The translations under genes were made by a program, and so were the position numbers. The notes below the pieces were generated by a model. The model saw nothing but the letters and a program-made list of their open reading frames with translations, had not been told where the DNA came from and searched no databases. Positions 3,969 through 32,857 of a stretch of DNA of 55,579 bases are shown piece after piece. Within the stretch, counting starts at the first letter, position 1. Each line of letters opens with the position of its first letter. Source of the DNA: Candidatus Thorarchaeota archaeon (GTDB taxonomy: Archaea > Asgardarchaeota > Thorarchaeia > Thorarchaeales > Thorarchaeaceae). The stretch covers positions 1 to 55,579 of the forward strand of contig JAOUFI010000008.1 of NCBI GenBank assembly GCA_029858305.1, given 5' to 3'.

Positions 3969-4109
3969 ATGGCCGAAACGACAAGACCAACATCAACCCT
4001 CCAGAAGAACGCTGAAGTCCTTCACACTCTCTATGGTCTTCTAGATAGCGACCGTGAGCCAACAGATCAAGACGCGATGAGTTTGCGATATCTGTATGCG
4101 AGTTCCTGA
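3969..4109 (+). CDS. Micropeptide A, 46 aa (MAETTRPTSTLQKNAEVLHTLYGLLDSDREPTDQDAMSLRYLYASS)
   Basis: Translated by hand. GGAG at 3957-3960; in-frame alternative ATG at 3951; followed by three hairpins; lies in an otherwise gene-poor gap. Confidence 0.5.
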   Translation: MAETTRPTSTLQKNAEVLHTLYGLLDSDREPTDQDAMSLRYLYASS

Positions 4110-4121
4110 CATTATCATGCT

Positions 4122-4209
4122 CCTCATTATTCAATGAGGTCAATTCGCTGTCTCCGTGCACCTCCCGGCATCAGAGACACAGTGGGCGGACTCCCCTAGG
4201 TCTGCCCAC
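4122..4209 (+). other. Three consecutive stem-loops 3' of micropeptide A
   Basis: CCTCATT-attc-AATGAGG (4122-4139); TGTCTC..GAGACA (4149-4179); GTGGGCGGAC-tcccctag-GTCTGCCCAC (4182-4209, 10 bp with one G-U). Confidence 0.55.
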
Positions 4210-4222
4210 ACCATTTCTGAAA

Positions 4223-4549
4223 TCAATCGATGTGAATAAAATGTCCGTGCGAAAAACGAAACTTGATAGTTCCGCTGGCACAAGAACACTTCTCAGGAAA
4301 CATAGACTTCGCCTTGCAAAGATCAGCGCAGAGCGACGCGCGGTCAAGACTTAGTTCTGCTCCCTTTTCATATTGGCGTAACTTGGTTGAGAAATTACCA
4401 AACCATAACTTTAGAACACATGTTCCAATACTATGTGTACACTCATTATTTGGCTTAGAATCTCTTTGATAGTTGGATTGAAGCTTGGCTAGAGGAAGGA
4501 GTTCTACCTCTGGATGCTTCTCAGAAGCAGAGAAGACAATATCGTTCAT
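4223..4549 (-). CDS. Hypothetical Cys-containing protein (doubtful)
   Basis: ATG-initiated 108-aa ORF co-oriented downstream of the kinase; no recognised motif. Confidence 0.3.
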   Translation of the reverse strand: MNDIVFSASEKHPEVELLPLAKLQSNYQRDSKPNNECTHSIGTCVLKLWFGNFSTKLRQYEKGAELSLDRASLCADLCKAKSMFPEKCSCASGTIKFRFSHGHFIHID

Positions 4550-4638
4550 TCATATGAATAATCACGAGGAATCAAGGCTTCATTTTATACATCGCCAAAT
4601 CCGAGATTAAGTCCATTCTGATTATTGCTGAGCACTAC

Positions 4639-5907
4639 TCATAGAACTGGAACAGTAATGAGAAACGCTGCACCCTTTGTTTCCTTCTCATCAATAAGTT
4701 CAATTGTGCCGCCGTATGATTCGACAATTCTTTTCGAGAGGTAGAGACCAAGACCTTTCCCTTCACCTTTAGTGGTTACACCTTTCTGAAAGATTCGAGG
4801 CTTGATGCTCGAATCAATGCCTGGTCCATTGTCGCGGTAAGTGATTATCAACATCTTCCCCACAAGTCCTAACCGGATGGTCACAACGGCACTTTCACCA
4901 ACATAATCAGCTGTATTCCTCAGCAAGTTTTCTAGTACCAGTGGGAGTAGGATGCCTGGACGGATATCTGCGGACTGAATTTCAGATTCAATCAAAAGAC
5001 TGATTCTTGCACCGCCACTGGTATGTTTGGCTCGATCAGCCATGTTCTGAAGGGTCATTAGAAAATCATATTCACCTCCTCTTCCAACAACGGAGAATAG
5101 TTTAATGACCCGCGACATTCTCTCACTAACCGCGAGGGCAGTTGAAAGGTATGATTCCCTGTCTGGAGGAACCACCATTGTTTCGTCAAGAAGCTCAATA
5201 TGTCCTCTCACTATCTGCATATCATTACCTAGATCATGAGTCAGGACTGAGGTGTATACTTCAAGCTCTCGCTGGCGTTGCTCAAGGAATTTCTTATGCT
5301 CCTCTAGCTGTGAAAGATAGTAATTTAGTATCCCTGAGAAGATCAAAACAACAAGGGAGAGTGAAACTTGGTCGATAATGGGTTCGAGTGCTGCCATGAG
5401 CCCTATATTCGGGTGAATCTCACAGTATACCAAAAGTCCAGTTGTGTTTCCAATAATGAGTAATGCTTCTAACTTCGTAGTGAGCCATTGACTGCCAAAG
5501 AGGGCTGCAACTACTGGCCAGAGGATCAAATTAAGTGCAACTCTCAATTCAGTCTGGTTGAATTCTACGAGTAGAAATAGATATGGCATGATTGCTAGAA
5601 AAAGAGTAGTGATGATACCTGCAGCTATAACATACTTTGTTCTGCTGATTATATAGATTGTAAGGAATATTGATGTGGCTAAGAAGAACAACGTAAGATT
5701 ATCGCGAAGAATACCGAGGACCAGTTGAATTAGAGGAAGCAGGATTACTATTAGAAGTAATGCAAATGATAGGAGTCGGGCTTTCGTTCGGAGCACATCG
5801 GAACGTATTCCCGCTGATGGCTCAATTAGAATCTGGCGAATCTTCTGAAATATAGAAACTTCTCTTGTCATGTGACTTGTATCTGACATTTCACATAACA
5901 TCCTCAC
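4639..5907 (-). CDS. Membrane-bound sensor histidine kinase
   Basis: About six N-terminal TM helices, H-box THDLGND, N-box ENLLRN, G1 DNGPGI, G2 GKGLGL. Confidence 0.92.
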   Translation of the reverse strand: MRMLCEMSDTSHMTREVSIFQKIRQILIEPSAGIRSDVLRTKARLLSFALLLIVILLPLIQLVLGILRDNLTLFFLATSIFLTIYIISRTKYVIAAGIITTLFLAIMPYLFLLVEFNQTELRVALNLILWPVVAALFGSQWLTTKLEALLIIGNTTGLLVYCEIHPNIGLMAALEPIIDQVSLSLVVLIFSGILNYYLSQLEEHKKFLEQRQRELEVYTSVLTHDLGNDMQIVRGHIELLDETMVVPPDRESYLSTALAVSERMSRVIKLFSVVGRGGEYDFLMTLQNMADRAKHTSGGARISLLIESEIQSADIRPGILLPLVLENLLRNTADYVGESAVVTIRLGLVGKMLIITYRDNGPGIDSSIKPRIFQKGVTTKGEGKGLGLYLSKRIVESYGGTIELIDEKETKGAAFLITVPVL

Positions 5908-6210
5908 TAAATAGTGTGAGATTCATTGCAATATCACTGAAAAAAAAGACATGTAAGGTTTGGTCGTGCATGTCAAACATCTTGTATGTTTGTATGTGGT
6001 CTGGATTTTTCTCAATACTCTAAGTATCAATCTAATAACTATTTAATCGATTCAAAGATGCCCTCTTTCCTGAATAATCCTTTTAATGACTCTCAAGACT
6101 TCTAGAGTTATCCAATTACTTGGCTTACCTTTCCGCTCAATCATTTCGTACATGGTACTTGCATAGTCCCTCTCGACAGACTTTTTCTGCGAAAGATATG
6201 ACCGCACAGT

Positions 6211-7116
6211 TCATCCTTCATGGCGCTCATTATTCAGACGAATCAATGTCTTGCGTTTATCTAAAGCAGGAATCGAATATACTAAGGCAAGGAGCAATGA
6301 AATCCCACAAGTGATTCCCGCCAGCCCGACATCTTGAATACTTCTTACTACCCATTCTCCGTAATACGCTGTCGGCAAGACTAATTGCCCAGGTGACTGG
6401 AATGCAAAAAAGAGTGATAAAAGGCCAAATGTCAGCAGGAGAACATCAAGCACAAGGAACAAGATCCATGCATATCTCCATCTTACTATCAAAAGAATCA
6501 CGATAATCAAAAAGAGCATGCCGATGGTCCATATTGCGTTCATCAAGCTACTGCCAAGCAAAGTCATATCCGGTCCTCTTATTGTCATGTAACCCTGGAC
6601 AAGAATGAAGAGGAACCCTCCAAGGAATGAATGCAGCACTACATTGATGAGGACAGGACCATCGTTTTCTAGAGTCTGCTGGCGATGAAGGGATTTCGAT
6701 ACTATTGAGTCTTGACTGAGTAAGCCAAGATTAACAACATTCAGAAGGCATAGGAAATACATCGGAATAATAAGTTCTGATAGTCTTGGCTGGAATACAG
6801 GAATGGGCAATAGCAGTGCAAGAATAGCTAATGAGCTTAGTAGAACCATCATGATAATACTCCATGGCTTCATCATTTTTAAGAGCCAAATAGCAAATAG
6901 TTGATATGCACCTATTACTCCCCAAACCAGTAAGATCAATTGCAGGCTCGGTGGATAATCTAGTCTATTCAATCCCGTTATACCGAAGAAGAAAAGAAGT
7001 ATTACACCTGACGACGCGTAGAGCCCTTCCAGAATCTCCTCCATAGTATGCCTACCTTGCATTTTAGCTAACATTGATATTTCCATCCAGACGCGCATTA
7101 GTTTCTGAGTTATCAA
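6211..7116 (-). CDS. Multi-pass membrane protein
   Basis: About eight hydrophobic helices in two similar halves; start uncertain. Confidence 0.65.
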   Translation of the reverse strand: MITQKLMRVWMEISMLAKMQGRHTMEEILEGLYASSGVILLFFFGITGLNRLDYPPSLQLILLVWGVIGAYQLFAIWLLKMMKPWSIIMMVLLSSLAILALLLPIPVFQPRLSELIIPMYFLCLLNVVNLGLLSQDSIVSKSLHRQQTLENDGPVLINVVLHSFLGGFLFILVQGYMTIRGPDMTLLGSSLMNAIWTIGMLFLIIVILLIVRWRYAWILFLVLDVLLLTFGLLSLFFAFQSPGQLVLPTAYYGEWVVRSIQDVGLAGITCGISLLLALVYSIPALDKRKTLIRLNNERHEG

Positions 7117-7257
7117 ATAGCTTTTCGAAAAAATGACAAATGAATTATTCTCAGTCTATAGAATTTGTCAACGCTTAATAAGCAATTGCAACTTTTCTGG
7201 CTACTGACATCGAAATCGCAATATGAATTCGATACATCCGTATATTGAGAGAATGCG

Positions 7258-7503
7258 ATGAGCGATTACCTGACAGGTGAGCATAATGGTTCTAGGTTGT
7301 CTGTCACAGGTGTTATTCTGTCAATCATGGCTATCGGGATTATCTTTGTGCTCATCAGAGCTCTAAATCCAGTCTATGGTCGATACATCATCAGTCAGGA
7401 GTATATGACGATACTTCTTGCTCTTCTAACTGCTTCAATAGTAATTGCAATCGTACTACGAAGGGTTCAGAAAGATCTCGATAGCGATGAATCATTTTTC
7501 TGA
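7258..7503 (+). CDS. Small two-TM membrane protein
   Basis: 81 aa, two hydrophobic segments, charged C-terminus. Confidence 0.6.
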   Translation: MSDYLTGEHNGSRLSVTGVILSIMAIGIIFVLIRALNPVYGRYIISQEYMTILLALLTASIVIAIVLRRVQKDLDSDESFF

Positions 7504-7777
7504 CCGCCATAGAATAAATGATTCTTCTGTTTCGTTAATTCTAGATGTCTTCTGTTTCGAATTACACACTTCAGTGCTCTTCAGACCTTGAGAATAATTC
7601 AATTACTTGACTTGCATTTTCGCCTAGTAATTCCAGAAATAGTTGCGGCACAATTTCTCAATAAGCTACTTTCCAGCGCTGAGTTTCATGCCCATGATAA
7701 CCTGCGTGCTAATCTTTAAACAGCCCCAGACCATCTAATACTTAACTAAATCCTATGTTTGGTTAGTGGTGGATTAA

Positions 7778-9445
7778 TTGAGGAGATTAATAGCAGTAGC
7801 CTCTCTGTTCATTATATGCAGCATACTTTGCTTTCAAACTGCTATGTTTCAAGAGTTTCCTGTTTCTGGCTCTGTAATGCCTGTTGCTACTCCATCTAGC
7901 GTATTGATGTTTTCTACATATATTGGAGGCAGCGATGATGATACGGTTCATTCTGTGGCTGTTGATGACAACGGGAGCATATACATCGCTGGTACCACAA
8001 AGTCGAATGATCTCCCTTCCGCTGATGGACCACGAATTCCATTTTCAGGTTCTAGTGACTATTTTGTAATGAAGTTAACAAATAATTGTGAATTAGTCTA
8101 TACAACTTACATCGGAGGAACATCCGCAGATGGCATTCCGAACCTTCATCCTGATGCTAGTTGTTCGATTGATGTTGATCAGTCTGGACATGTCTACATG
8201 ACAGGCTACACCACCAGTCCAGATTTTCCAGTGGTAAACGCTTGGGATGATACATACAATGGTAATGGCGACTGTTTTGCTTTGAAACTCAGTCCATCTG
8301 GCGATGCCATTGAATATGCCACTTTCATTGGCGGCAATAAACTTGACATGGGCATCACCATTTCTGTAGATGACTTGGGGAATGCATATATTTCCGGAAG
8401 AACATGTTCATCTGACTTTCCCACTCTGGCTTCATTTGATGATACACTTGGCGGAGTCCAGGATTGTTTCCTCTTGAAGCTCAACGTCACCGGACAAATC
8501 GTCTACTCTACGTTTGTGGGTGGCGAATCAGGTGGTGAAGGCTCGCATCCAAATGGTTTAGTTATAGACACAAATGGGAATGCATACATCATAGGATGGA
8601 CTAACTCTCAGGACTTTCCCACTGTCAATGCGTTCGACAGTACTTTAGACGGAATTAGTAGTGATGTCTTCTTCTGCAAGGTAAGTTCTGCAGGTCTTCT
8701 TCTTGCAAGTTCTTACTACGGAGGCATAGCCACAGATGAGAATGGCGGAATTGCTGTTGATGGAGAAGGAAACATCTATATCAGCGGTCATGGAAGCATC
8801 GGTTATCCAGGAACTATGGTTCTCTCAGACCATCCGGAGATTTTCGTTGCCAAATTTGACTCTTCTGGGAGAAACCTGATCTATTCCTCTGTCTTCGGTG
8901 GGATGTATTTTGACAACCCATTTGGTCTGCTAATTGATCAGGAAGGATGCCTATTTGTCACTGGAGCCACCGGGTCTTCTGACTTCCCTATGGTGAAGGC
9001 GTACGACAGCACCAATAATGGATTAGGTGACGCATTTCTGACAAAACTGTCCAGCGGTGGAGACAACATACTCTTCTCCTCGTATGTCGGTGGAAACTCA
9101 AGTGATATGGGAATCTCGCTGGCGAAAACCAACTCTGGTACAATCTACTTGGTAGGGATTACAAATTCCACCAATTTTCCAACTGTATCAACGCCCTTTC
9201 CAATGCACCAAAACCTTGATGGTTTTTTGGTGACGCTTGAGAACTCGTGGCCAAATGTGCCCCCTGAAGTCACCCCATCAACTTCAACATCCTCGCATCA
9301 AAATCCGAGCACTACTATAGTCACAGAGTTTGGACTTAGTTCTAATGAAATCAATCTTTTGCTCATTGCAGGAATTGGTATTGAATTAGTGGTCATCTTT
9401 TTACTCCTGCAAAATAGCTATAAGTCCTCGAGGAAAAGCCAATAG
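7778..9445 (+). CDS. Surface beta-propeller (SBBP-repeat) protein with C-terminal TM anchor
   Basis: Repeated YxT[YF]xGG...VDxxGNxYxxGxTxSxDFP...DxFxxKL units, signal peptide, S/T linker, TM and basic tail. Confidence 0.9.
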   Translation: MRRLIAVASLFIICSILCFQTAMFQEFPVSGSVMPVATPSSVLMFSTYIGGSDDDTVHSVAVDDNGSIYIAGTTKSNDLPSADGPRIPFSGSSDYFVMKLTNNCELVYTTYIGGTSADGIPNLHPDASCSIDVDQSGHVYMTGYTTSPDFPVVNAWDDTYNGNGDCFALKLSPSGDAIEYATFIGGNKLDMGITISVDDLGNAYISGRTCSSDFPTLASFDDTLGGVQDCFLLKLNVTGQIVYSTFVGGESGGEGSHPNGLVIDTNGNAYIIGWTNSQDFPTVNAFDSTLDGISSDVFFCKVSSAGLLLASSYYGGIATDENGGIAVDGEGNIYISGHGSIGYPGTMVLSDHPEIFVAKFDSSGRNLIYSSVFGGMYFDNPFGLLIDQEGCLFVTGATGSSDFPMVKAYDSTNNGLGDAFLTKLSSGGDNILFSSYVGGNSSDMGISLAKTNSGTIYLVGITNSTNFPTVSTPFPMHQNLDGFLVTLENSWPNVPPEVTPSTSTSSHQNPSTTIVTEFGLSSNEINLLLIAGIGIELVVIFLLLQNSYKSSRKSQ

Positions 9446-9470
9446 CTGAAGTTCGTGGCATGTCTAGTAA

Positions 9471-10565
9471 TCATTCTGGAGAGTTCAATACAAAGTCTCC
9501 TCTAATCTCAACAACCTGTTTGATGACTCTTAGTACCTCTAGAGTTATCCACTTACTTGGCTTGCCTTTCCGCTCGATTATTCCGTACATGGTACTTGCA
9601 TAGTCCCGCTCGATAGGCCACTTTCCTGTGTTGAGTCTCTTACTCATGATGACTCTGAGTGCATCATCAATTCGACTATCTTGTGCATATCCTAGTTTGG
9701 TGACAACAGAGAGTCCCCTGAGAATGTCGTAGAAGAACTCAGGAAAAGTAAGTAAAAGCCACTGTTCCTTGATTGGTCTGAGGTCGTGGTGATCTGCCTT
9801 GTAGAGTCTATGCATCAGAAGAAATTCCGCGCCCTGCGCAATTGCATTCTTGATGCTTGCATTGAGGAGCTTCTTTGGTGCCTCAGAGAATGCATCAAGC
9901 GGCGTGATTGTGCCCATAAAACATCCGTGCTTGTCATCCTTGTGAGCATGCCAGTAGGGGCAGAGCCAACCACCATCAGTATTTTGAATCTCTACCAGCC
10001 ATTTCAGAGCATCCTTGACAGCTCTATGGTATGAATATCCCAGATGAATGAGGGCGAGTGCCATGTTCCCGGTAAGGCATGAGAGCTCCATCTCCCGTAT
10101 TCTTGCACTGACCCACTCATCTACAGGCGGATACGTTTTCTTATGCTTGAGAGCTCTCTTGCGCAGATACTCATACTCTCTTTTGGCTCCTTCCTCAGTG
10201 AACTCAACGAATCCCCCCTCTTGGTGCTGGAATTCAAGTATATACTCGACTGCTCTCTCTACCTGATGATTGGTATGGTCTAAGCCAAACATAGCTAGAA
10301 ACATGATTTGCCAGTATGAAGACTTATACTTCGGCAGGTACGGCTGATCCTTTGACTCCCACGAACCATCTGGATTTTGCTTGTTGAGTATACGTTGAGT
10401 TACTTTGTATTTTATGAGTTCCTCTCTTGCTTCAAGTAGCTCGGAATCTGTTTTCCTATATTCAAGGAGATCTCTCATTGTGAAGTACTTGACTGGAGGA
10501 TTATCATCTTCTAATAACCACTCTATGGGGATTGCCTTGAATGATGACATCCAGTCTTTAGTCAC
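9471..10565 (-). CDS. Prenyltransferase/squalene-cyclase-like alpha-alpha barrel protein
   Basis: QW-type repeats QNPDGSW, QHQEGGF, QNTDGGW; C-terminal GKPSKWITL; no DxDD cyclase motif. Confidence 0.7.
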   Translation of the reverse strand: MTKDWMSSFKAIPIEWLLEDDNPPVKYFTMRDLLEYRKTDSELLEAREELIKYKVTQRILNKQNPDGSWESKDQPYLPKYKSSYWQIMFLAMFGLDHTNHQVERAVEYILEFQHQEGGFVEFTEEGAKREYEYLRKRALKHKKTYPPVDEWVSARIREMELSCLTGNMALALIHLGYSYHRAVKDALKWLVEIQNTDGGWLCPYWHAHKDDKHGCFMGTITPLDAFSEAPKKLLNASIKNAIAQGAEFLLMHRLYKADHHDLRPIKEQWLLLTFPEFFYDILRGLSVVTKLGYAQDSRIDDALRVIMSKRLNTGKWPIERDYASTMYGIIERKGKPSKWITLEVLRVIKQVVEIRGDFVLNSPE

Positions 10566-10729
10566 CGTGAGTCTGCCTCAACTAACACGAGTGATTGCTC
10601 TACATTAATGAAATCATCGGAATTCTCTCTCATCATTCAGAGCGAATCCATTCCATCGTTTATCTACTTCTCCATGCTTCGAACCATAAAATTGATTTTT
10701 TCAAACGCATATTGACTTAGATTGAAATC

Positions 10730-12223
10730 ATGAAACCAGTAGGCAGCATCACGAAGGACTTCCCCTTCCTTGATGAAGATATTCGTAATGAGATTGAATC
10801 TACTATGAATGAGGCACGCGACTACTGGGACTTTATTGAAAAGCTGGGTAAAAAAGCAAGTCATCCCGATTGTTCCGCACTGGTGATATACCTCTCGCTC
10901 TATCATGCTTCAAGAGCCTCACATACTACTGCTGTCAGGTCTATAACTGAAGTCCATCTTGACTTGCCATTGCCCTCCCCCTTTTTCCATGGTGTCGCTG
11001 ATGAAGGGGACAATGCTGAAATCATTCAGAGAGCGCTTGAGCTGATACCGAATCAAGCGATTCGATTCTATCTCATGATGCGATTATATCGTGTATGCGA
11101 AATAGGAAGCCCTGAGGAAACCCGCGCGAAGAAGATGATCGAGAGTCTCCTGAGAAAAGATCAAAGACTCCGACTGCACGCGGCTGACTACTATGGTCAT
11201 TATGGAATGCGCCTCCGCTGGGAAAGCCAACCTGAGAGCGCCCTGTTATATTTGAAAAAGGCTCTGAGACTGGCGAGAAAGTCAGACGACCAATGGCATC
11301 AATCCCTCCTGCTTACTCTGATTGCAGAAGTTGAAGGTCAATATAACAAGCGCCTTGGCCATTATGCGAGAGTAAAGCGATATCTTGGTGAAGCAATAGA
11401 GATCTCAAAGGCGCTTGGAGACCGTAAAAGAATTGCTGATATCCTTCAAACCATGGCTGTTTATGCAGCGAGTCGCGGCGAAATGGATGAGTGTCTTAAG
11501 TGTCAACTTGAATCAGTGAATATCCAAAGCGAATTTGGAAACATCGGCTTTACGTCTGCACACAATCTATCGGGTGTATACGCTGATATTGGAGATGGAA
11601 AGAGCGCACTCGAATGGGCAAAGATGGCTGCCGAGCTTCAACCAGGAGTCTATTCGCATCTTTTGCTGGCAGATATTTATATTCAGCTCGAAAAAATCGA
11701 AGAAGCCGAATCAACCCTTGATGCAGCTAAGGCATTGGTACTAAAAGAGGGTCTTGAATTCGCCTTGGGACGATGGTACGATGTGAATGCAAGGCTTGAA
11801 CGCAAGAGAGGAGACCTAGATTCGGCACTTGATCAACATCAAAGAGCTCTCGAGATTCACGAGAAAGGTAACAGGCATCTAAGAGCAAGAATCTGTTTGA
11901 AGCAGCTAACAGAGATTGAGGTTGAGATGTTTAATCCGACAAAGAAAAATCGAGATATGGGGCACTCTGGACCTTATATGAAAAAATATGAGCAAGACAT
12001 AATAGGAAACGATCTTCCTGGTCATGAAGCGCAACTGTTGCTATTAAAGGCTGAACTTCGCATGAAACAAGGGCGTCATCAGGAGGGTCAACAATTGCTA
12101 GATTCTGTTCTCAAGAGTACTAATTATCCCGCCATAAAATCTCTCCACGAAAAAGCAGTACACACTAGAGAAAAATGGATTAATGCTGGATTCATTTCTC
12201 CTCGCATTCGCAGGAAACGATAA
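10730..12223 (+). CDS. TPR-repeat protein (MKPxGxIT family), paralogue 1
   Basis: Helical repeats such as ALLYLKKALRLA and ALDQHQRALEIHE; shares N- and C-terminal motifs with 14512-16002. Confidence 0.85.
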   Translation: MKPVGSITKDFPFLDEDIRNEIESTMNEARDYWDFIEKLGKKASHPDCSALVIYLSLYHASRASHTTAVRSITEVHLDLPLPSPFFHGVADEGDNAEIIQRALELIPNQAIRFYLMMRLYRVCEIGSPEETRAKKMIESLLRKDQRLRLHAADYYGHYGMRLRWESQPESALLYLKKALRLARKSDDQWHQSLLLTLIAEVEGQYNKRLGHYARVKRYLGEAIEISKALGDRKRIADILQTMAVYAASRGEMDECLKCQLESVNIQSEFGNIGFTSAHNLSGVYADIGDGKSALEWAKMAAELQPGVYSHLLLADIYIQLEKIEEAESTLDAAKALVLKEGLEFALGRWYDVNARLERKRGDLDSALDQHQRALEIHEKGNRHLRARICLKQLTEIEVEMFNPTKKNRDMGHSGPYMKKYEQDIIGNDLPGHEAQLLLLKAELRMKQGRHQEGQQLLDSVLKSTNYPAIKSLHEKAVHTREKWINAGFISPRIRRKR

Positions 12224-24837: not shown

Positions 24838-24900
24838 TCAATATTGTCCTATGGATTTTTAAAACAAGAAACCGTCTATACGCGAGTTGGAGAAAAAAAA

Positions 24901-25347
24901 ATGGAAAGCAATACAGAAGTAATGCAGCGGATAAAGAAGGTCATTAATTCTCAGAGTATCGCAGTTCTTGGTACTTCAAAGAATGACGAACCCTACTCAT
25001 GTCTAGTTGCATATGCTGTGACAGATGATGTTAGTCACTTTATATTTGCGACAATGCGTCAGCGACTAAAATACAGAAACCTATCAGTCAATCCAAGAGT
25101 TTCATTAATCATTGATGATAGAAGTGAGAAATCAAGTGATTTCAATGAAACTACTTCAATTACTGTTATAGGGACTGCAAGGGATATCGTTGGCCCTGAA
25201 CGTGATAAGAATGCTGCCCTTCTCTTGAGACGGCATCCTTCTCTAACAGATTTTGTTATTTCCCCTGAATGCGCGGTTATCCGAGTTGATGTTGACAAAA
25301 TCTACGTGGTGAGTGAATTTGAATCAGTTGTAACAATTGGAAAATAG
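24901..25347 (+). CDS. Pyridoxamine 5'-phosphate oxidase-like FMN-binding split-barrel protein
   Basis: AVLGT..PYSCLVAY, FAT...KYRNL..NPRVSLII; GGAG SD before ATG 24901. Confidence 0.85.
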   Translation: MESNTEVMQRIKKVINSQSIAVLGTSKNDEPYSCLVAYAVTDDVSHFIFATMRQRLKYRNLSVNPRVSLIIDDRSEKSSDFNETTSITVIGTARDIVGPERDKNAALLLRRHPSLTDFVISPECAVIRVDVDKIYVVSEFESVVTIGK

Positions 25348-25370
25348 ACTAATCCGCAATCAGATTTCTT

Positions 25371-26063
25371 TCAAAGATCAATCCTTGTGTCTGCATCTCT
25401 ATTCACGCCAATTCTTTCCATAAGAGAACCAATTGGATCTATATAGAACCGATGGTTGCAGGTAAGACATTTAACGGTGCTATTGTCTTCTACTTCATAA
25501 TCACGATAGTTATGTGAAATATGGCACCAAGGGCATTTCGCTCTGGTCCCTGCAAAAGATGGAAGATCCTTGTTAATCGATCGATACCTATATGGAAATG
25601 GATCAATATACTGCTTTGCGGCTGTTCGTCCAATGATACCAAGGACTATACAGTAGTCCATGAAAATGAGAACTAGAAAAACTGGTTGCATCCACTCAGG
25701 CAATGCGGTAATAACTGACAAAACTGCGGGAAAGGGGATAAAGAGAAGTTGTGCAACGACCGTAAGCATCATTCCCTGAGTCAACCACGCCTTGCCATTT
25801 TTTTTGCATCGATACGACCACAGATACTTAGCTGTGAGTGTGTTGGCAACTCCTACAATCACTGATAAAGCTATGAAAGCAAGCAGAACGGTGGGCCAGA
25901 CATTTGCTAGTATAATGCCGTGAGTATATCCCGCCACATACCATAATATAAGCAATCCAGGGAACAATGGATAGGTGAGGATAAACAATAGCAATCCGTT
26001 GAAGAAGGAATATACCACATCTGTCAACAGATTAAGTTCATTCCTTTCTGGGAGTCCCTCCAT
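25371..26063 (-). CDS. Membrane protein (paralogue family) with C-terminal zinc ribbon
   Basis: Four TM helices; CPWC...CLTC. Confidence 0.75.
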   Translation of the reverse strand: MEGLPERNELNLLTDVVYSFFNGLLLFILTYPLFPGLLILWYVAGYTHGIILANVWPTVLLAFIALSVIVGVANTLTAKYLWSYRCKKNGKAWLTQGMMLTVVAQLLFIPFPAVLSVITALPEWMQPVFLVLIFMDYCIVLGIIGRTAAKQYIDPFPYRYRSINKDLPSFAGTRAKCPWCHISHNYRDYEVEDNSTVKCLTCNHRFYIDPIGSLMERIGVNRDADTRIDL

Positions 26064-26187
26064 CAGAATCCCTCTTCATTCATTCTGGATTCTATAATCC
26101 TTACAAATTGTCTTAACGATTCTGGTTTCAGTACATATTCTTTTACAAGGATGAGAACCCTTTAGTACGAGTGCCGCATTATAAGAA

Positions 26188-26270
26188 GTGGGCGTCGGTG
26201 AAGTATCATGGTAACTAACTACCATCGGTTACCACACCCAACTGATACCTTACTGTCGCCCGCCTCTTTT
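26188..26270 (+). ncRNA. Candidate small structured non-coding RNA (or leader of the downstream phosphatase)
   Basis: About 19-bp outer helix, 8-nt bulge, 8-bp apical helix, 3' CTCTTTT; TATA-like CTTTAGTA at 26160-26167. Confidence 0.55.
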
Positions 26271-26303
26271 GAAGTCGTATTGTTTTGTAGATTGGCTTCG
26301 TAG

Positions 26304-26897
26304 ATGGCGCTAATGAAACGCAAGGAGAAGGGTGGAGTGTCAAATTCAATCTATTTTCTCAGACACGCGGAGACTTCTGTTGATCCCTCTCTACCAGTCA
26401 ATGAATGGTTAATTACCCCAAGAGGACTTCTTCGAGCACGTGAACTGGCAAGGTCAGAGGTCTTTGGTAAGATTGAAGGAATCGTCCATTCGAGCGAAAA
26501 AAAGGCGCGGCAGACTGCAGACGTTTTTGCTGAGGAACTTGCAGTGGATATTTATGAGATTCCAGAGCTTGCTGAGCTAAAGCGTCACCATGGAAAGTTT
26601 CTATCGAATCCAGAATATCGTTCGCTAGTGCGCGACACACTAACAGATTGGGATCACAGCGTTCGCGACTGGGAATCAGGTGCGGATGCAATACGCCGGT
26701 TTGTCGAGGGCGTGAAGAGAATCAATTTTATGTTCTATAGCAGGAATATACTCGCAATTTCACATGGTATTGTACTCACGCTCTATTTCTGTCAACTGCG
26801 CAATTTCCAATCCATTGCATACGAACGCTGGACACAAACGCCATTCTTAGCTTGGGGACTTGTCAGGGATGGACGAGTTCTCATTGATATTCTTTAA
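26304..26897 (+). CDS. Histidine phosphatase (phosphoglycerate mutase-like) family protein
   Basis: YFLRHAET, SS..KARQTA, LAE, ISHG. Confidence 0.88.
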   Translation: MALMKRKEKGGVSNSIYFLRHAETSVDPSLPVNEWLITPRGLLRARELARSEVFGKIEGIVHSSEKKARQTADVFAEELAVDIYEIPELAELKRHHGKFLSNPEYRSLVRDTLTDWDHSVRDWESGADAIRRFVEGVKRINFMFYSRNILAISHGIVLTLYFCQLRNFQSIAYERWTQTPFLAWGLVRDGRVLIDIL

Positions 26898-26957
26898 GTA
26901 TGTATGCTTTCAGAACCTTTTTCTATTAAAAATAGCACATCCATTGAGTGATTAACT

Positions 26958-27473
26958 ATGACGTCGAAGATAACCAAAGAGATGATAACATCTTTTTCGA
27001 AGTTTAAGACAGCATGGGAGAAAGATGCGGACAAACCAGAGAATACGATTATGTACTATCTTATAGCCGCATTGAACATCGAGAAGGATCCCAAGCTGGC
27101 TGAGGCAATGATGACAGTTGTAGTTTCTAAGAAAGACTGTCTCGAAGATGGTGGATCCCCGTCGGGATTAAAACTTGGAAAAAGTGCAAAATACTATATT
27201 GGCCAATTCCAGCAGAACAAGAATATCGCTCGGTCATACATAGGTGGTACAAATACCAATAGCTACAAGATTGATAGCAAGGTACTGACAATGACAGTTG
27301 TAAGCAAACAGGACATCAGCGGAGGTGTCAAGATCTTCATTCAGAGCGGTGGAAAAGATATGGCCACTCCTGTGCAACTTGCTAAGAATAATGAAGGTCA
27401 GTGGAAACTCACGAACTACAGCTCTATCTGTACTGGTGTAAAGAAGACAGTCGAAGAAGAAGGCGATTTCTGA
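26958..27473 (+). CDS. Conserved hypothetical protein (DUF6935-like)
   Basis: IARSYIGG, KIFIQSGGKD..TPVQL, WKL..YSSI.TGVK motifs; family name from recall only. Confidence 0.55.
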   Translation: MTSKITKEMITSFSKFKTAWEKDADKPENTIMYYLIAALNIEKDPKLAEAMMTVVVSKKDCLEDGGSPSGLKLGKSAKYYIGQFQQNKNIARSYIGGTNTNSYKIDSKVLTMTVVSKQDISGGVKIFIQSGGKDMATPVQLAKNNEGQWKLTNYSSICTGVKKTVEEEGDF

Positions 27474-27577
27474 ACAACTTGGTACTATTTTGGATTCAAA
27501 AAACCCTTCAACCTCTACTCAATTCTGGATGCCTCAAGTTGTCCTGTCACAGCAGGACAACTGTGAGCTTTCTCATT

Positions 27578-27982
27578 TCAATCTTCAATCAGATCTTTTT
27601 CTATGGCATCAATCAATTCATCCGACTTGGCTTCAGATTGGCGTGAATATACTTTGAACTCCTTATTGCAATTAGCGCATCTGACTTTTATTGGAAACTC
27701 CTCTGTCTTCATTCGATAGGAATAGATTGCCTTACAATGAGGACATGTCAGTCTTGTGTATTCTATCAATGAATCAGCATTGACTACTAGTTCGACGTGC
27801 CCACAAGATTTGCAAAGAATCGCTTCTAGTGGAGTAGAATCAAGCTCATCTTTTTGGTCTGAAATCCTAGTGAATTCCATTGGCGATTTAAGATGGGGAT
27901 AATAATGATACTCAAAGATGACTCCGCTCTGGAGATTGGCATTCCCACATCTAAGACAACTTCTACTCTTCATCCAGTTCAC
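27578..27982 (-). CDS. Double zinc-ribbon protein
   Basis: CLRC, CKSCGHVEL, CPHC, CANC; acidic helical tail DELIDAIEKDL. Confidence 0.75.
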   Translation of the reverse strand: MNWMKSRSCLRCGNANLQSGVIFEYHYYPHLKSPMEFTRISDQKDELDSTPLEAILCKSCGHVELVVNADSLIEYTRLTCPHCKAIYSYRMKTEEFPIKVRCANCNKEFKVYSRQSEAKSDELIDAIEKDLIED

Positions 27983-28121
27983 TCGCTTTTTCTTAGCGCG
28001 AGCGCCATTAAGGTCTTTGTAGATTTACTTCGTGCATACTATCAATGAAGTGGCATCGCCAAGTCACAGCTGTTTCAGTTTTACCAGCTTAATCACTATT
28101 TCATAACACAATTAATTAGTA

Positions 28122-28156
28122 AGCGAAATACTTATATATTGTAATACGTAATACAA
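28122..28156 (+). promoter_or_regulatory. BRE/TATA promoter and adjacent 18-bp palindrome TTGTAATACGTAATACAA
   Basis: GCGAAATAC-TTATATA, then the palindrome at 28139-28156 (16 of 18 positions symmetric). Confidence 0.65.
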
Positions 28157-28207
28157 ATACATGCAAGCCAAAAGACTTCGATTCGCGGGGTTGAGGTTTG
28201 GAGAGGA

Positions 28208-28327
28208 ATGGTGACCAAGATGACTGATGGAACGAAAGATGGTGAAGCCTTCGCAAGACGAAGAAATCGAAATTCGGGTCTCAAGACGCTTGATTCCCTG
28301 TACTATGAATATACTCGCACAAAGTGA
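28208..28327 (+). CDS. Micropeptide B, 39 aa (MVTKMTDGTKDGEAFARRRNRNSGLKTLDSLYYEYTRTK)
   Basis: Translated by hand; GGAGAGGA precedes ATG 28208 and GGTGA precedes in-frame ATG 28220. Confidence 0.55.
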   Translation: MVTKMTDGTKDGEAFARRRNRNSGLKTLDSLYYEYTRTK

Positions 28328-28350
28328 TCTAAGAGAATGAGGTGAAAAAT

Positions 28351-28449
28351 ATGGCACTATCAAAGAATGAAAAGCGAAAGTTGAACGGGACTAAGAGAAT
28401 TCCTTCTACTGAAGCTCTCGCATATGCATGGCTCTACAGAGAGTTGTAG
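28351..28449 (+). CDS. Micropeptide C, 32 aa (MALSKNEKRKLNGTKRIPSTEALAYAWLYREL)
   Basis: Canonical archaeal SD GAGGTGA (28339-28345) 5 nt before ATG; followed by hairpin and T-tract. Confidence 0.65.
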   Translation: MALSKNEKRKLNGTKRIPSTEALAYAWLYREL

Positions 28450-28481
28450 AGACTGCAGTATCAGTCATCTATGGTCCAAAT

Positions 28482-28536
28482 TGAGAGAGTGTACTCAGAT
28501 TCAAACTCTGAGCACTCTTCTCACAATTTCTTTTTT
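28482..28536 (+). terminator. Hairpin plus oligo-T closing the micropeptide B/C unit
   Basis: TGAGAGAGTG(TA)CTCAGA / TCTGAGCACTCTTCTCA then TTTCTTTTTT. Confidence 0.6.
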
Positions 28537-28559
28537 CTCGGGGATTTTATACTATCTAA

Positions 28560-28901
28560 TTGATACTCATTATCATGGGGGCGCAAGTCAACATTCAATC
28601 ATCGAATTACCTCGTTCACGATGCCAGAGGTCTTCTAGAGAATGATATCGTCTATTATACTGCAGTCAAGATCGCAGATGCGATCATGGAGGGAATAAAT
28701 CAACTGACCTATTCCAACACAATTGAGTTAGCAACTCTGTTTATCACAAGCTCTGGTGCTCAACTCGTGCTCCTGGCGAGGTCATTTGACAAAGAACTCA
28801 TTGCACCAGCATTCCGTAGCATGTTGCGCGGCGTGACTTTTGATACTGAATCTGGGTATCTTCACAAGTATGTGATTCCCATCCTTGAAAACGAGAGTTG
28901 A
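28560..28901 (+). CDS. Hypothetical protein (start probably at MGAQV)
   Basis: About 108 aa, globular composition, fills the gap before the aminotransferase. Confidence 0.55.
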   Translation: MILIIMGAQVNIQSSNYLVHDARGLLENDIVYYTAVKIADAIMEGINQLTYSNTIELATLFITSSGAQLVLLARSFDKELIAPAFRSMLRGVTFDTESGYLHKYVIPILENES

Positions 28902-29015
28902 GTCACGAAATTAACAAAGCTCTTCATGTTTATGGAAGAATTGCCAATCACTCGAACTTGAGTAGAATTCATTAGTCACTATATCTCCTTTTAATTGAAC
29001 CACTAGGAGACAATT

Positions 29016-30149
29016 GTGATGAAGCTTGAGCGTTTTAATCTTGAACGTATTCAATCTGAATGGGAGCACCGTGTAGAGCTCAATCTGAGTGAGAGTGGAG
29101 TCGAGCCGCTTAGAATCAGAGAGTTGCTTAACACTCCTGAACTGAAAGAACAGCTTTTGGACATCCAATTAGGCTATTCTCAAACCAATGGAACAATTCC
29201 ACTAAGGCGAGCGATTGCCCAATACTATCCTGGGTGCGGAGCTGACAATATAGTTGCTACCAATGGTGGCGCGGAAGCCAACTTTCTTGTCACCTGGAGA
29301 TTCTTCCATGAAAATCCCTCTCGACATGAACTGGTGTTCATGATTCCAAATTACATGCAGATGAGTGGTGTGTGGAAATCTCTTGGAGGAAAGGTCAAAA
29401 CATTCAAGCTTAAGATTGAGAATAACAAATGGATTCCGGATATTGAGGAACTGAAGTCTCAGGTCACAAAGAAGACCATGGCTATTGCAATTTGTAACCC
29501 GAATAATCCAACGGGCTCAATCATCACTGATAGTGATTTGGAAGCAATAGTCGAAATTGCATCTGAGAAGGATGTATGGATTATCTCGGATGAAATATAC
29601 AGAGGTGCCGAATTGCAAGAAATGAAAGCACCTTCAATGCATGGCCGCTATGAAAAAACCATCATTACATCGAGTCTATCCAAGGCCTATGGCCTTCCAG
29701 GACTCCGTGTGGGTTGGGCTATTTGTCCCTCAGAACAAGTCGCCACGGAACTATGGACGTATTCTGATTATACAACTATCTGTCCTTCGAAAGTGAGTGA
29801 TTGGCTTGCAACATTGGCTCTGAATCCTAAGGTGCAGGTTATGATAGAGAAACGAACAAGACAGCATATCCGGGATAATTGGTCTATCATGCAAAAATGG
29901 CTGGATTCTCACTCTGACATACTCGAGTGTATCTCACCCTCTGCAGCTGCTATATGCTTTATCAAACAAAATACTGGAATACCATCCTTGGATCTGGTGA
30001 TGCGGCTCATAAAAGAGAAGAGTGTTCTGATATCTCCTGGCGAGTATTTTGAGATGCCTGGATTCATTCGGATTGGATTTGGCTCCAGGAAAGAGTATCT
30101 TCAGGAAGCATTGGGTCGGATATCTGAGCTTCTTAACTCCATGAGATAG
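29016..30149 (+). CDS. PLP-dependent aminotransferase class I/II
   Basis: CNPNNPTG, ISDEIY, SLSKAYGLPGLRVGW (PLP lysine), FIRIGF. Confidence 0.93.
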   Translation: MMKLERFNLERIQSEWEHRVELNLSESGVEPLRIRELLNTPELKEQLLDIQLGYSQTNGTIPLRRAIAQYYPGCGADNIVATNGGAEANFLVTWRFFHENPSRHELVFMIPNYMQMSGVWKSLGGKVKTFKLKIENNKWIPDIEELKSQVTKKTMAIAICNPNNPTGSIITDSDLEAIVEIASEKDVWIISDEIYRGAELQEMKAPSMHGRYEKTIITSSLSKAYGLPGLRVGWAICPSEQVATELWTYSDYTTICPSKVSDWLATLALNPKVQVMIEKRTRQHIRDNWSIMQKWLDSHSDILECISPSAAAICFIKQNTGIPSLDLVMRLIKEKSVLISPGEYFEMPGFIRIGFGSRKEYLQEALGRISELLNSMR

Positions 30150-30174
30150 TGTTTCAATTCTGTCTTAGAGAGAT

Positions 30175-31479
30175 CTATTCTGATCGAATCACATCATATA
30201 CTGTTCTGCACTTTGTACAACTGATGATCTTATTATTGTGTGTAGAATTCATATGCAGTTGTGTTCTTGCATTACAAAATGGACAGTCCGCTACGAATTC
30301 TTCAGGCTTTTGGACAATCTGCTCTGTCTGAACAATGGTCTTGATGCCTGCTGCAACGAAACGTCCAATGAATCCATAAATTATCAGATATATTCCGATT
30401 CTAATGATGAACAGTATAATCCAGACGATTGATGCACCGTTCACTCCCATCATTATTGTAAGACCTGAAATGATTGCTGCATAAGACACATCTAACAAAA
30501 TACCAGGAATTCCAAATAGATAGACCATTAGAAATAGCATGGTGCCATGAACGAAGACACTCTTCCAATATGTTGATGAATCCATTTTCCATATTAGCTT
30601 GGAGAGAAATGTGTTAATAGCTCCAAGTAGGAATAGAAATAGAATACTTGAGGGTATCATTATTAGAGACAGTGCTAGGATGTCGCCAGCTAGTATACCA
30701 ATTGCCAGGGTCAATTGTGCGCTCAGAAAAGCTACAGGTATCATGAAAAATCCAATAATAAACGACCCGAGCAACATCAAAAGTACGTATAATGTTCCAT
30801 GCGCTAAATATCTAGGCAACGTCTGCTTCAGACCTTTTTCATATGGCTGCCATTTTGAGAGATCTGGTGTAGCTAATACCATTGCTTGGCTCCTGTCCCT
30901 CGTTGTTATAATCGAGTCCTGAAGCGGGACTATTCGAGAAGCAATGGGAATATCCGAGAAGCCAATGCCAATAAATCTACCAAGGTATCCATCAATTGTG
31001 GCATAGATTATGAATCTGGGGATGGCAATGCTTACTAGAACCAGTATGTCTGGATTTGAATATAAGTAGTCAAAAAGAAGCGTTGGAATACCAGCAACAA
31101 ACATTAGGAGTGCGAGAATGCCTCCGTGTCCAAAAAGGCTTTTAATTTTCGTTGAGGGTTTTACTTTCCAAATACGTCGCGATAGCTGCACATTAATGAA
31201 ACCTATAATGATCATGCCTAGGAAGAATGCACTGCCAAGCATTACCACAACAAGTATCCATCCGACAAGATTGCTACCTGTTGCCACTTCGGCAATAACC
31301 GCCATCGCAAGGAAAAGAGTTCCTATCAATGAAAGGAGAAACACTCCAAAGACTGCCAGAACTGAGTATAATGCTCCATGTATGAAATACTTCATGAAGT
31401 CCTGCATGAAGCTTTTCTCTCGCAGCGGTTGATTCTCTATTTTAGACAATATGACAATGCCTCCAGACAAGCAAGTCAA
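30175..31479 (-). CDS. Membrane protein with two tandem copies of the paralogue-family domain and C-terminal zinc ribbon
   Basis: KYFIHG/RYLAHG, IGFIN/LGAIN, SLFGHG/SVFVHG, GYLGRF/GFIGRF; CPFC...CTKC. Confidence 0.8.
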   Translation of the reverse strand: MTCLSGGIVILSKIENQPLREKSFMQDFMKYFIHGALYSVLAVFGVFLLSLIGTLFLAMAVIAEVATGSNLVGWILVVVMLGSAFFLGMIIIGFINVQLSRRIWKVKPSTKIKSLFGHGGILALLMFVAGIPTLLFDYLYSNPDILVLVSIAIPRFIIYATIDGYLGRFIGIGFSDIPIASRIVPLQDSIITTRDRSQAMVLATPDLSKWQPYEKGLKQTLPRYLAHGTLYVLLMLLGSFIIGFFMIPVAFLSAQLTLAIGILAGDILALSLIMIPSSILFLFLLGAINTFLSKLIWKMDSSTYWKSVFVHGTMLFLMVYLFGIPGILLDVSYAAIISGLTIMMGVNGASIVWIILFIIRIGIYLIIYGFIGRFVAAGIKTIVQTEQIVQKPEEFVADCPFCNARTQLHMNSTHNNKIISCTKCRTVYDVIRSE

Positions 31480-31532
31480 TCACTGCAAAACAATTCCTCA
31501 AGATAAATCTTGGTGAAGACTTTGAACAAAGA

Positions 31533-32405
31533 TTATCCTCGGAATGAGATACCTAAGAGCTGTTCTGTCCTCTGCCACAATTGCTTTTGAAGTTCTTCAT
31601 CATAGCTGATTACTGCTGATTGTTTTGGCTTGCAATTCACAAAATACTCGCCGTTTGCTCCCTTAATCTCTGGAGAGGATGCAAGATAGATTGAGGTTTC
31701 TGCACCCTTTTCTGGACTCTTAAGCAGTGGCCCGAACATTCTAAACATAAGCTTCCTTGCCCTAGATGCGTCATTCTGCCCAAATCGCGTTCTAACAACG
31801 CCCGGGTGGAGGACATTAACGGTGACACCGGTACCATCAAGATATCGTGCTAGAGAATATGTGAACATAACATTCATGAGCTTGGCATTGGCATAGGGTC
31901 CTAACTGACCATACTTCTTTTCGCTCTGCAGATTTTCAAAGTCTATTTTCCCTCTTAGATGAGCCGCGGAGCTCACATTGATAATACGTGATGGGGCACT
32001 TGCCTTCAATCTATCTAGCAACTCATGTGTGAGAAGAAACGGCGCAAGATGATTGAGTGCAAATGTTCTCTCAAGTCCATCAATAGTCATTTCCTTCTTC
32101 GGGAAAATCCCTCCTGCATTGTTGATGAGCACATCCAATCGCGAGTGAGTCTTCTTGAAGTCTGATGCGAGTCCACGGACCTCCTCAATTGAAAACAGAT
32201 CAGCTACCATCAGTTCAATTGACTCATTTCTAGTCTCCTTTGCGATTTCCTGACGAACTTCTTCTCCAGCCTCACGATTTCTAACGGCCATCACCACAGT
32301 AGCACCCATCTTTGCCAAGGCTCGTGAAGTTTCTCCACCAATTCCAGAATTGGCGCCTGTTATCATACATACCTTGCCTGTCATATCTATTGAATACCTA
32401 TCCAT
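31533..32405 (-). CDS. Short-chain dehydrogenase/reductase (retinol dehydrogenase-like)
   Basis: TGANSGIG, NNAG, NVSS, YANAK, HPGVVRT. Confidence 0.95.
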   Translation of the reverse strand: MDRYSIDMTGKVCMITGANSGIGGETSRALAKMGATVVMAVRNREAGEEVRQEIAKETRNESIELMVADLFSIEEVRGLASDFKKTHSRLDVLINNAGGIFPKKEMTIDGLERTFALNHLAPFLLTHELLDRLKASAPSRIINVSSAAHLRGKIDFENLQSEKKYGQLGPYANAKLMNVMFTYSLARYLDGTGVTVNVLHPGVVRTRFGQNDASRARKLMFRMFGPLLKSPEKGAETSIYLASSPEIKGANGEYFVNCKPKQSAVISYDEELQKQLWQRTEQLLGISFRG

Positions 32406-32430
32406 CTCAACTTACCAACTCAAAATACTT

Positions 32431-32442
32431 TAACAATAGTTA
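32431..32442. promoter_or_regulatory. Operator-like palindrome TAACAATAGTTA
   Basis: Immediately downstream (minus strand) of the TATATATT box of the SDR gene; identical to the 20567 site. Confidence 0.65.
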
Positions 32443-32731
32443 TTAATATATAGGAGGTGACATGTTTTCTTCAATTGTGATATTCCTTTTTTCTGCAGAA
32501 CCATGCAAATTTGACATCTGTGAGAGACCAAACAGCCTTATGAAACCTTAAAACAAGTGAAAAAATATCAAGAATGTTTTTTTACACGCATAAAGTAGTC
32601 ATAGATTTGTAGACATACTAAAAGGCTACCATGTTTGATTTCTACAGGTCTCGAAACAATTGAATTTGTTTGTATTATGTCATACCCTGCAGATAGTTCT
32701 GAATAGAACTGCTGCAGGATGCAAGAAAACT

Positions 32732-32857
32732 ATGACTTTCGAAAAGAAGGATACTACAAGCAATCAGCGCCCTGCCAGAATAAAGAAACCACAAAATTCA
32801 CTGGCTGAGAATATGTCATTATACGAGTTCGCTCGTATATACTATGACGGCCCATGA
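32732..32857 (+). CDS. Micropeptide D, 41 aa (MTFEKKDTTSNQRPARIKKPQNSLAENMSLYEFARIYYDGP)
   Basis: ATG within the supplied 32660-32857 ORF; preceded by a CCTGCAG..AGTTCT/AGAACT..CTGCAGG hairpin; about 30 nt upstream of a TPR gene. Confidence 0.5.
   Translation: MTFEKKDTTSNQRPARIKKPQNSLAENMSLYEFARIYYDGP

Follow-up and report, generated by a model that had tools for sequence, protein, structure and literature searches.

In this work we have examined four short open reading frames (ORFs), here called A, B, C and D, which lie in apparently empty gaps of a Candidatus Thorarchaeota genome. The window, by which we mean the whole stretch analysed, is 55,579 nucleotides (nt) long (contig JAOUFI010000008.1 of assembly GCA_029858305.1, forward strand) and is contig C32 of a draft source genome of 3.04 Mb in 205 contigs, with 42.8% G+C. 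An earlier note, made from the sequence alone, had proposed the four ORFs as a candidate dispersed, co-regulated family of micropeptides which share a C-terminal tyrosine motif and dock on a common partner. We find that all four are genuine small-protein genes maintained by selection in related Thorarchaeota genomes. They very probably form three independent modules and no single motif family: a cassette that begins with A, a bicistron of B and C, and a pair consisting of D and the gene of a tetratricopeptide repeat (TPR) protein downstream of it. To our knowledge, almost nothing is known about the small proteins of Asgard archaea, and in the literature on Thorarchaeota small proteins and Asgard micropeptides, judged from titles and abstract openings, no publication on these genes was found. 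The taxonomic labels of GTDB were coded for the comparisons: f1 is the family that holds the source genome, f2 its sister family, g1 the source genus and g25 a second genus.

Coding status of the four ORFs

The translations given in the earlier note were reproduced: A encodes 46 amino acids (aa), B 39 when read from position 28208, C 32 and D 41. In the loci fetched from the source genus none of the four ORFs is interrupted, their starts and stops align, and the ratio of nonsynonymous to synonymous substitution rates (dN/dS) indicates purifying selection in each of them, with values of 0.06 for A, 0.20 for C, 0.27 for D and 0.59 for B. In the DNA search of the genus that supplied these loci, 19 of 24 genomes gave a match to the A region; of 27 genomes, 22 matched the B/C region and 5 the D region. 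The number of D sequences rose from these 5 to 26 once the loci of the TPR gene were taken as the starting point. Shine-Dalgarno-like sites were seen before A, B and C, and the hairpins described after A and C were confirmed (z -4.41 and -2.23). None of the four protein sequences has a hydrophobic N-terminal segment, in agreement with the reported lack of signal peptides. The label "unannotated" fails for A, whose exact 46-aa product is found in the public protein sets; the exact products of B, C and D are not on record.

The evidence is clearest for A. In 21 of 21 loci no stop interrupts its frame, compared with 14-48 stops in the other five; its variable sites are distributed over the first, second and third codon positions as 18/9/39 (46 codons), and over 210 pairs dN is 0.071 and dS 1.19. 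The ratio for C comes from 168 usable pairs out of 190 and from 20 distinct copies in the loci of the genus, that for D from 6 usable pairs out of 10 in the first genus set. Could the ORFs nevertheless be untranslated, their conservation being that of RNA or promoter elements? The low dS of B would fit such an explanation, as would the structured RNA that lies directly 3' of A. We consider it extremely improbable, since the changes in A concentrate on third positions of the one open frame, C and D combine ratios of 0.20-0.27 with a dS near 1.2, the conserved tail of D varies its synonymous codons for proline, glycine and tyrosine, and the paralogues of C hold their frame, start and end while their middles diverge.

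B is the weakest coding case of the four. The ATG at 28208, which the earlier note had chosen as its start, is a lysine codon in the closest relative, and the conserved start is the ATG at 28220. Read from there, B is open in 16 of 16 orthologues and exactly 35 codons long in 14 of 17 copies; in the standard-length copies its frame is open in 14 of 14, four of the other frames hold 14-46 stops and the fifth holds 2. The overall ratio (118 usable of 120 pairs) falls to 0.35 in the C-terminal half, with a dS of 0.30. One point weighs against the coding interpretation as stated here. The ratio of 0.59 for B goes together with an unusually low dS of 0.30-0.44, compared with about 1.0-1.2 for A, C and D in overlapping genome sets of the same genus, so part of the conservation of B may lie at the RNA level. 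The low dS suggests an extra constraint on its nucleotides.

Searches of family collections returned little. Pfam and NCBIfam gave 0 matches for the small proteins at E <= 10, and PADLOC and PHROGs at E <= 0.1 gave a single weak row, phrog_30823 with E 0.028, on the long form of B that starts at 28208, and nothing for C. Rfam had no match in the window, and scans for bacterial-type terminators and promoters are uninformative in an archaeal host. A metatranscriptome run contained 7% of the sampled words; four short contigs from it map to larger genes at 28660-28842, 29684-29874, 30394-30425 and 30939-31155, none of them over B, C or D.

Table 1. Features of the three modules and further copies of the C family (positions refer to the window unless another contig of the source genome is named)
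Feature	Position	Strand	Description
ORF A	3969..4109	+	46 aa, acidic, single copy; order-wide
Three-hairpin RNA	4110..4214	+	directly 3' of A; hairpins at about 4122-4139, 4149-4179 and 4182-4209
Basic ORF	4241..4354	+	37 aa; last part of the A cassette; tblastn matches in other loci
B-C promoter block	28128..28156	+	TATA-like stretch and imperfect palindrome TTGTAATACGTAATACAA
ORF B	28220..28327	+	35 aa when read from the conserved ATG; precedes C in the B-C bicistron
ORF C	28351..28449	+	32 aa; multicopy Thorarchaeota microprotein family MAL...ST[DE]A..YA[YW].Y[RK]
Hairpin and U-rich run	28482..28538	+	3' of C; fold of 28447-28545 with z -2.23, 3 of 200 shuffles as good
ORF D	32732..32857	+	41 aa; leader gene of the D-TPR module; invariant Y-x-G-P-stop tail
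TPR gene	32889..33422	+	177-aa protein; conserved downstream partner of D
Twelve further C-family copies	C50:8651-8945; C119:34242-34814; C205:97000-97197; C155:21768-21970; C62:10433-10879	- (C119)	

One family or three modules

Are the four genes one dispersed family of co-regulated ligands or inhibitors which dock on a common TPR-type partner through a C-terminal tyrosine helix? Several observations speak for this proposal. All four genes are real and each protein has an aromatic, tyrosine-rich end, in which the motif hydrophobic-x-x-[LI]-Y-x-[E/D/S] is literally present; profile comparison sets B against C and B against A in the register of the motif; the window holds four TPR genes and three OppA-type binding-protein genes; and several genus genomes carry A, B-C and D-TPR on the same contig. 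We nevertheless regard it as very unlikely, for reasons that concern the motif, ancestry, regulation and the partner in turn.

As a family definition the motif fared poorly. When 1800 intergenic ATG ORFs of 25-60 aa were scanned for it in their last 12 residues, 10 carried it, compared with 4.4 +/- 2.1 in 200 shuffles (maximum 10). Four of these 10 are A-D themselves and the other six are at expectation; the motif is post hoc and stands at chance level once A-D are set aside. In the orthologues, the conserved residues of C and D fall off its defining positions. The last position is lost in orthologues of C, which read LYRK, LYNR or LYRR, and in D the invariant tyrosine sits at an x of the motif while the tyrosine of the motif itself becomes glycine in the second genus. 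The secondary similarities are likewise absent from orthologues: of the MSL that A and D were said to have in common, the methionine is Q or E in 13 of 21 sequences of A, and the word is not conserved in D either, and the proline of P[ST][DT]..A[ML], reported for A and C, is present in C in the window copy alone.

Common ancestry found no better support. Profile comparisons with hhalign over the six pairs gave P values of 0.029 (C-B), 0.043 (B-D), 0.054 (B-A), 0.25 (C-A), 0.25 (A-D) and 0.48 (C-D), every probability being at most 1.7%; these values come from repeat comparisons in which the C profile had been widened to 52 sequences and the D profile to 26. No pair survives correction for six tests, and the alignment of B with D runs in a register different from that of the tyrosine motif. 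Single-family hidden Markov models (HMMs) were made for A, B and D from their orthologues and run on 99,761 six-frame segments of the genome; each found only its own gene, with next best E values of 0.041, 0.21 and 3.1, respectively. The HMM of the C family recognized C with an E value of 2.7e-17, and A, B and D did not match it at E <= 20.

Nor did we find a shared operator among the upstream regions of A, B-C and D, as co-regulation would imply. The claim of related upstream palindromes stood in so far as an inverted repeat precedes each locus, but the three sequences are unrelated. The sole conserved word common to the upstream regions of A and B is the TATA-like ATATATTGT, with 2 occurrences in the window where 0.53 would be expected (a count of 2 is reached in 13 of 100 shuffles); it is missing before D. 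Repeats of the type GTATTAC upstream of A and B were also considered as a shared operator and were dropped: there are 213 of them genome-wide against about 530 expected from base composition, and they mark no regulon.

A common partner is not apparent either, since conserved linkage to a TPR gene is lacking for A, B and C. The proximity of B-C to D-TPR is synteny at the level of the genus only, and with that synteny set aside D alone is linked to a TPR gene. Finally, the ranges and copy numbers are very different, A being an order-wide gene in single copy, B confined to the genus, C multicopy in family f1 and D found in two genera.

Some points count against a strict separation of the modules. 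For peptides so short, undetected homology does not exclude homology, and the P values of C-B (0.029), B-D (0.043) and B-A (0.054) are borderline. A paralogue of the C family on contig C155, which ends in TLDAIGYAYIYRR, moreover looks intermediate between B and C, and because of this paralogue and of the short length of the peptides B is treated here as possibly a diverged C-type protein; A and D are treated as unrelated. On this evidence, the tyrosine-rich ends of the four proteins appear to be a common style, not a sign of common ancestry.

D and its TPR protein

What survives of the original idea is D with its own TPR protein. Of 81 genomes of family f1, 33 gave a match to the 177-aa TPR protein. 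A D-type ORF lies about 20-45 nt upstream of the TPR start, on the same strand, in 26 of 30 TPR loci from two genera. D is interrupted by an in-frame TAG in one of the remaining loci and absent from the other three, which belong to one subclade. D itself occurs in 18 of 24 genomes of g1 and 9 of 14 of g25, and was found in none of 262 genomes elsewhere. Among the 22 genus genomes covered by both searches, 16 have D and the TPR gene, 3 the TPR gene without D, 3 neither and none D without the TPR gene. The pair also survives a change of neighbourhood: an aminotransferase gene precedes it in 18 of 20 loci of g1 and in 0 of 10 in the other genera (g25), and D and the TPR gene stay together. The coupling of peptide and TPR protein that had been proposed for the whole set can thus be upheld for D and not for A, B or C. 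In this genome and its nearest relative, two extra genes stand between the aminotransferase gene and D. In the window these are the genes of a 434-aa protein of unknown function and of a short-chain dehydrogenase (30175-32405, minus strand); the dehydrogenase is in the same place in genome G007, whose contigs end in between, and in other members of the genus the aminotransferase gene directly precedes D.

The most conspicuous part of D is its end. The tail Y-x-G-P is invariant in 26 of 26 sequences, with four proline, three glycine and two tyrosine codons and all three stop codons in use, and it is therefore conserved at the amino-acid and not at the nucleotide level. Within two clades dN/dS is 0.07-0.11 for the tail and 0.31-0.36 for the remainder of the protein, which is hydrophilic throughout and held at a length of about 38-47 aa. 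No paralogue of D was found in the genome, where D alone is conserved among 7 frames of less than 90 aa that end in Y.GP or similar, and the second short TPR gene of the window (51658) is not preceded by a D-like ORF. The stop codon of D overlaps an in-frame ATG in 4 of the 26 loci, which suggests that D and the TPR protein are translated together, and many of the TPR starts are TTG without a clear Shine-Dalgarno site. A hairpin masking the TPR start was predicted for the window sequence alone (z -1.19) and was abandoned as a candidate, since it is not conserved.

The TPR protein matches Pfam TPR families only (on 32880-33422), and no helix-turn-helix (HTH) family at E <= 0.001. It was modelled as a helical repeat array of nine helices with a confidence (pLDDT) of 84.2, in which residues 1-45, a long helix and the start of the repeats, have low confidence. 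Its nearest solved folds are consensus TPR proteins, the TPR domain of OGT, the PTS1-binding domain of PEX5 and MamA. The model suggests a consensus-like protein of the four-repeat, peptide-binding type.

What could be the role of D? D is the first gene of a two-gene unit and would most likely act on or through its TPR neighbour. We tentatively propose that the free Y-x-G-P tail may dock in the groove of the TPR protein, so that D would serve inside the cell as its ligand or partner, the two being produced together. With a little more reserve, D and the TPR protein can be seen as a possible intracellular, secretion-independent peptide-receptor pair of an Asgard archaeon, in which the tail of a 41-aa microprotein would be read by a minimal TPR protein encoded on the same transcript. 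Against this stand the loci in which the TPR gene is found without D or with an interrupted D, because of which the TPR gene must be able to exist alone.

The layout invites comparison with known receptors of this kind. In RRNPPA systems the propeptide is secreted, by means of a Sec signal peptide or PptAB, and re-imported by Opp. According to PMC9765709, these systems of Firmicutes (Rap-Phr, PlcR-PapR, NprR-NprX and AimR-AimP) place a small peptide gene next to the gene of a TPR-type receptor, the active part of the peptide is C-terminal, and the N-terminal effector part of the receptor is an HTH DNA-binding domain or a three-helix bundle. The resemblance lies in the TPR repeat domain of the 177-aa protein and in the peptide gene directly beside that of the receptor, and it is one of layout only: in the TPR protein we found no HTH or other effector domain, 26 of 26 D sequences have no hydrophobic N-terminal segment, the OppA-type genes of the window are not linked to D, and the pair is archaeal, with neither export nor re-import by Opp indicated. 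Since both a secreted propeptide and an effector domain of the receptor are missing, D-TPR is not a member of RRNPPA.

A second comparison is with eukaryotic TPR receptors of protein tails, namely PEX5, which binds PTS1, and Hop, whose TPR domains read the C-terminal tails of Hsp70 and Hsp90. Here too there is a short, consensus-like TPR array, PTS1-binding domains of PEX5 are among both the sequence and the fold matches, and D is most conserved in its last four residues. However, the matches to the 177-aa protein are those of a generic TPR, designed consensus TPR proteins score best, and the peroxisomal and chaperone tails are unlike Y-x-G-P.

Is it possible that D acts in cis, as a leader ORF that controls translation of the downstream TPR gene through a nascent chain which slows or blocks termination at Gly-Pro-stop? 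We know of no arrest peptide in archaea. Arrest peptides are for the most part products of upstream ORFs, and termination is the step at which some of them act (PMC11890864, PMC8450073, PMC10951299). D is placed and oriented in this manner in the 26 of 30 loci, its conservation peaks at the extreme C-terminus, at the peptide level and with any stop codon, and many of the TPR genes start with TTG and have no clear Shine-Dalgarno site; layout and tail conservation fit the arrest peptides described in PMC11890864. The likeness to the TnaC, SecM and PepNL type of arrest peptides and to regulatory upstream ORFs accordingly comprises a short co-oriented upstream ORF and peptide-level conservation concentrated at the C-terminal end, and some of those peptides act at the stop codon, as PMC11890864 describes. 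Those peptides are bacterial, however, and at D neither an inducer nor a conserved mRNA structure is evident, with 0 predicted pairs between the end of D and the TPR start in 26 sequences and a single-sequence fold of z -1.19. In addition, the N-terminal part of D is also under selection and the length of D is held. We judge such a leader function somewhat unlikely, and continue to prefer, tentatively, the docking of the tail on the TPR protein.

The A cassette, the B-C bicistron and the wider window

A is found in 57 of 76 genomes of f1 and in the single genome of f2 (1/1); the 223 other genomes of the phylum gave no match. It has 46 relatives in the databases, all "hypothetical" where named, and no Pfam family match; in the ESM Atlas it matched unnamed clusters only, at scores which shuffled proteins also reach. 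The RNA behind it is kept in 40 Thorarchaeota loci and folds with a z of -4.41, none of 200 shuffles folding as well. The loop of its second hairpin is an invariant CACCUCC, which resembles an anti-Shine-Dalgarno sequence. Of the 19 consensus pairs, 3 show compensatory changes, all of them in hairpin 3; hairpins 1 and 2 say nothing either way on pairing because they never vary. No Rfam match was found around A at E <= 10. At the position of the basic ORF that ends the cassette, 24 of 39 loci have a basic ORF. None of the fetched loci contains a relative of the 108-aa ORF which overlaps that of the window on the minus strand (4223-4549), and this overlapping ORF is probably not a gene.

Our best guess is that A is an intracellular adaptor or regulatory microprotein that would act through its aromatic C-terminal segment, together with the RNA behind it, and the CACCUCC loop of this RNA could pair with Shine-Dalgarno sites. 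The locus type closest to such an arrangement is that of ccaF1-CcsR (the "cuckoo" RNAs), in which the gene of a small protein is followed by structured small RNAs with C-rich loops. A followed by a conserved multi-hairpin RNA with its CACCUCC loop is similar in plan; it differs in that A has no Pfam match, the RNA no Rfam match and the lineage is archaeal.

B and C form a self-contained bicistron with its own promoter block and closing hairpin, the two genes being separated by 23 nt. The promoter block is the most conserved upstream stretch over 16 orthologues, and GTAATACGTAATAC, taken from it, occurs once in the genome. The hairpin and U-rich run behind C are likely the end of the transcript, and a bacterial-type terminator scan found none there. 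B is present in single copy in 16 of 24 genus genomes and in 0 of 52 genomes of the other genera of f1, with three chance-level matches elsewhere in the phylum (E 0.002-0.01). It appears to be a young, genus-specific gene and is possibly a diverged relative of C. After the bicistron, in related loci as well (38 locus rows, with many repeats of a single place), lies the gene of a 113-aa protein without a Pfam match (28560-28901, plus strand), which has a highly conserved promoter stretch of its own at about 28527-28557.

C belongs to a family of 13 copies at six loci in this genome. The members have a basic middle and an aromatic, helix-like end, and the window copy shows the features of the profile (about 30 aa, a MAL start and an end of the form ST[DE]A..YA[YW].Y[RK]). 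The family was found in 72 of 76 genomes of f1, covering all 16 sampled genera; 224 genomes from 29 other families of the phylum yielded none. A genome of the source genus has 4-13 matches, one from the other genera of f1 has 1-12. Among 1.84 billion representative proteins 50 matched at E <= 0.001, of which 48 are of the same type (29-103 aa) and 2 are long repeat proteins. Most copies stand in tandem arrays, in which each gene has its own GGAGG site overlapping the Arg-Arg-stop end of the preceding gene. The window copy is unlike this array type, being single, preceded by B and served by a different promoter block. A palindrome GTCAC-N5-GTGAC has 13 sites in the genome, 4 of them before other arrays of the family and none at the window copy. 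The arrays on contigs C50 and C119 have a nearly identical promoter and first gene. A third type of small protein, with the end EVLL[LW][ED]AT, follows two arrays (C205:97204-97311 and C155:21977-22093) and appears fused to a C-type peptide in three database proteins (P0066, P0083 and P0088).

Tandem arrays of paralogues raise the question of whether B, C and the C family are exported bacteriocin-like or signalling peptides, or precursors of modified peptides. Leaderless bacteriocins and phenol-soluble modulins are encoded in multi-peptide operons of tandem paralogous small genes, and the C family resembles them in its arrays of paralogues of about 30 aa with their own Shine-Dalgarno sites. 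The 13 copies, the strong TATA and Shine-Dalgarno sites and a gene of a major facilitator superfamily (MFS) transporter that follows 2 of the 6 loci on the same strand also agree with export. Still, we think it improbable. The proteins have no signal peptide and are polar and basic, not hydrophobic or membrane-active in style, and no maturase, ATP-binding cassette (ABC) exporter or immunity gene is common to the six loci, whose neighbours have nothing in common, or stands beside the window copy. With regard to modified peptides, no maturase of the radical SAM, YcaO, P450 or peptidase type was found among the 46 window proteins or the 38 neighbours of the five other loci. As to leaderless bacteriocins, there was no family match in Pfam or NCBIfam, nothing for C in PADLOC or PHROGs and no ABC exporter beside B-C, the MFS gene following 2 of 6 loci only, and in the window C is single and preceded by the unrelated B. 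Our best guess is instead that B and C are intracellular adaptor or regulatory microproteins which would bind through their aromatic C-terminal segments.

The remainder of the window contains other genes of interest. A bacterial-type UvrB gene, two tandem UvrA-type genes and a UvrC gene lie on the plus strand at 39651-47412 and 52296-54107, and the second short TPR gene (51658-52218) and the three OppA-type binding-protein genes are found between and around them. An arrestin-fold protein (Arrestin_N, Arrestin_C; 35280-36134, minus strand) is encoded beside a fragment of a Rad51/KaiC-like ATPase (34497-35252, plus strand). Both kinds of domain are eukaryote-like and typical of the genomes of Asgard archaea, the closest known relatives of eukaryotes.

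The apparently empty gaps of this Thorarchaeota genome hold several microprotein genes that are maintained by selection, A being one of the best-conserved genes of the lineage. They also carry a caution, as a short motif across four ORFs resembled a family and is, as we read the evidence, not one; apart from D and its TPR protein there is no demonstrable family, shared switch or common partner. If the tail of D is indeed read by the TPR protein, the pair would correspond in layout, within the archaea, to bacterial peptide-TPR signalling or to the TPR receptors with which eukaryotes read C-terminal tails. If D is instead a leader of the arrest type, it would be the first such peptide described in archaea, which would be equally new. 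With 41 and 177 residues the two proteins are small enough for direct tests, and they could provide a first entry to the study of regulation by peptides, or of the control of translation by nascent chains, in Asgard archaea.

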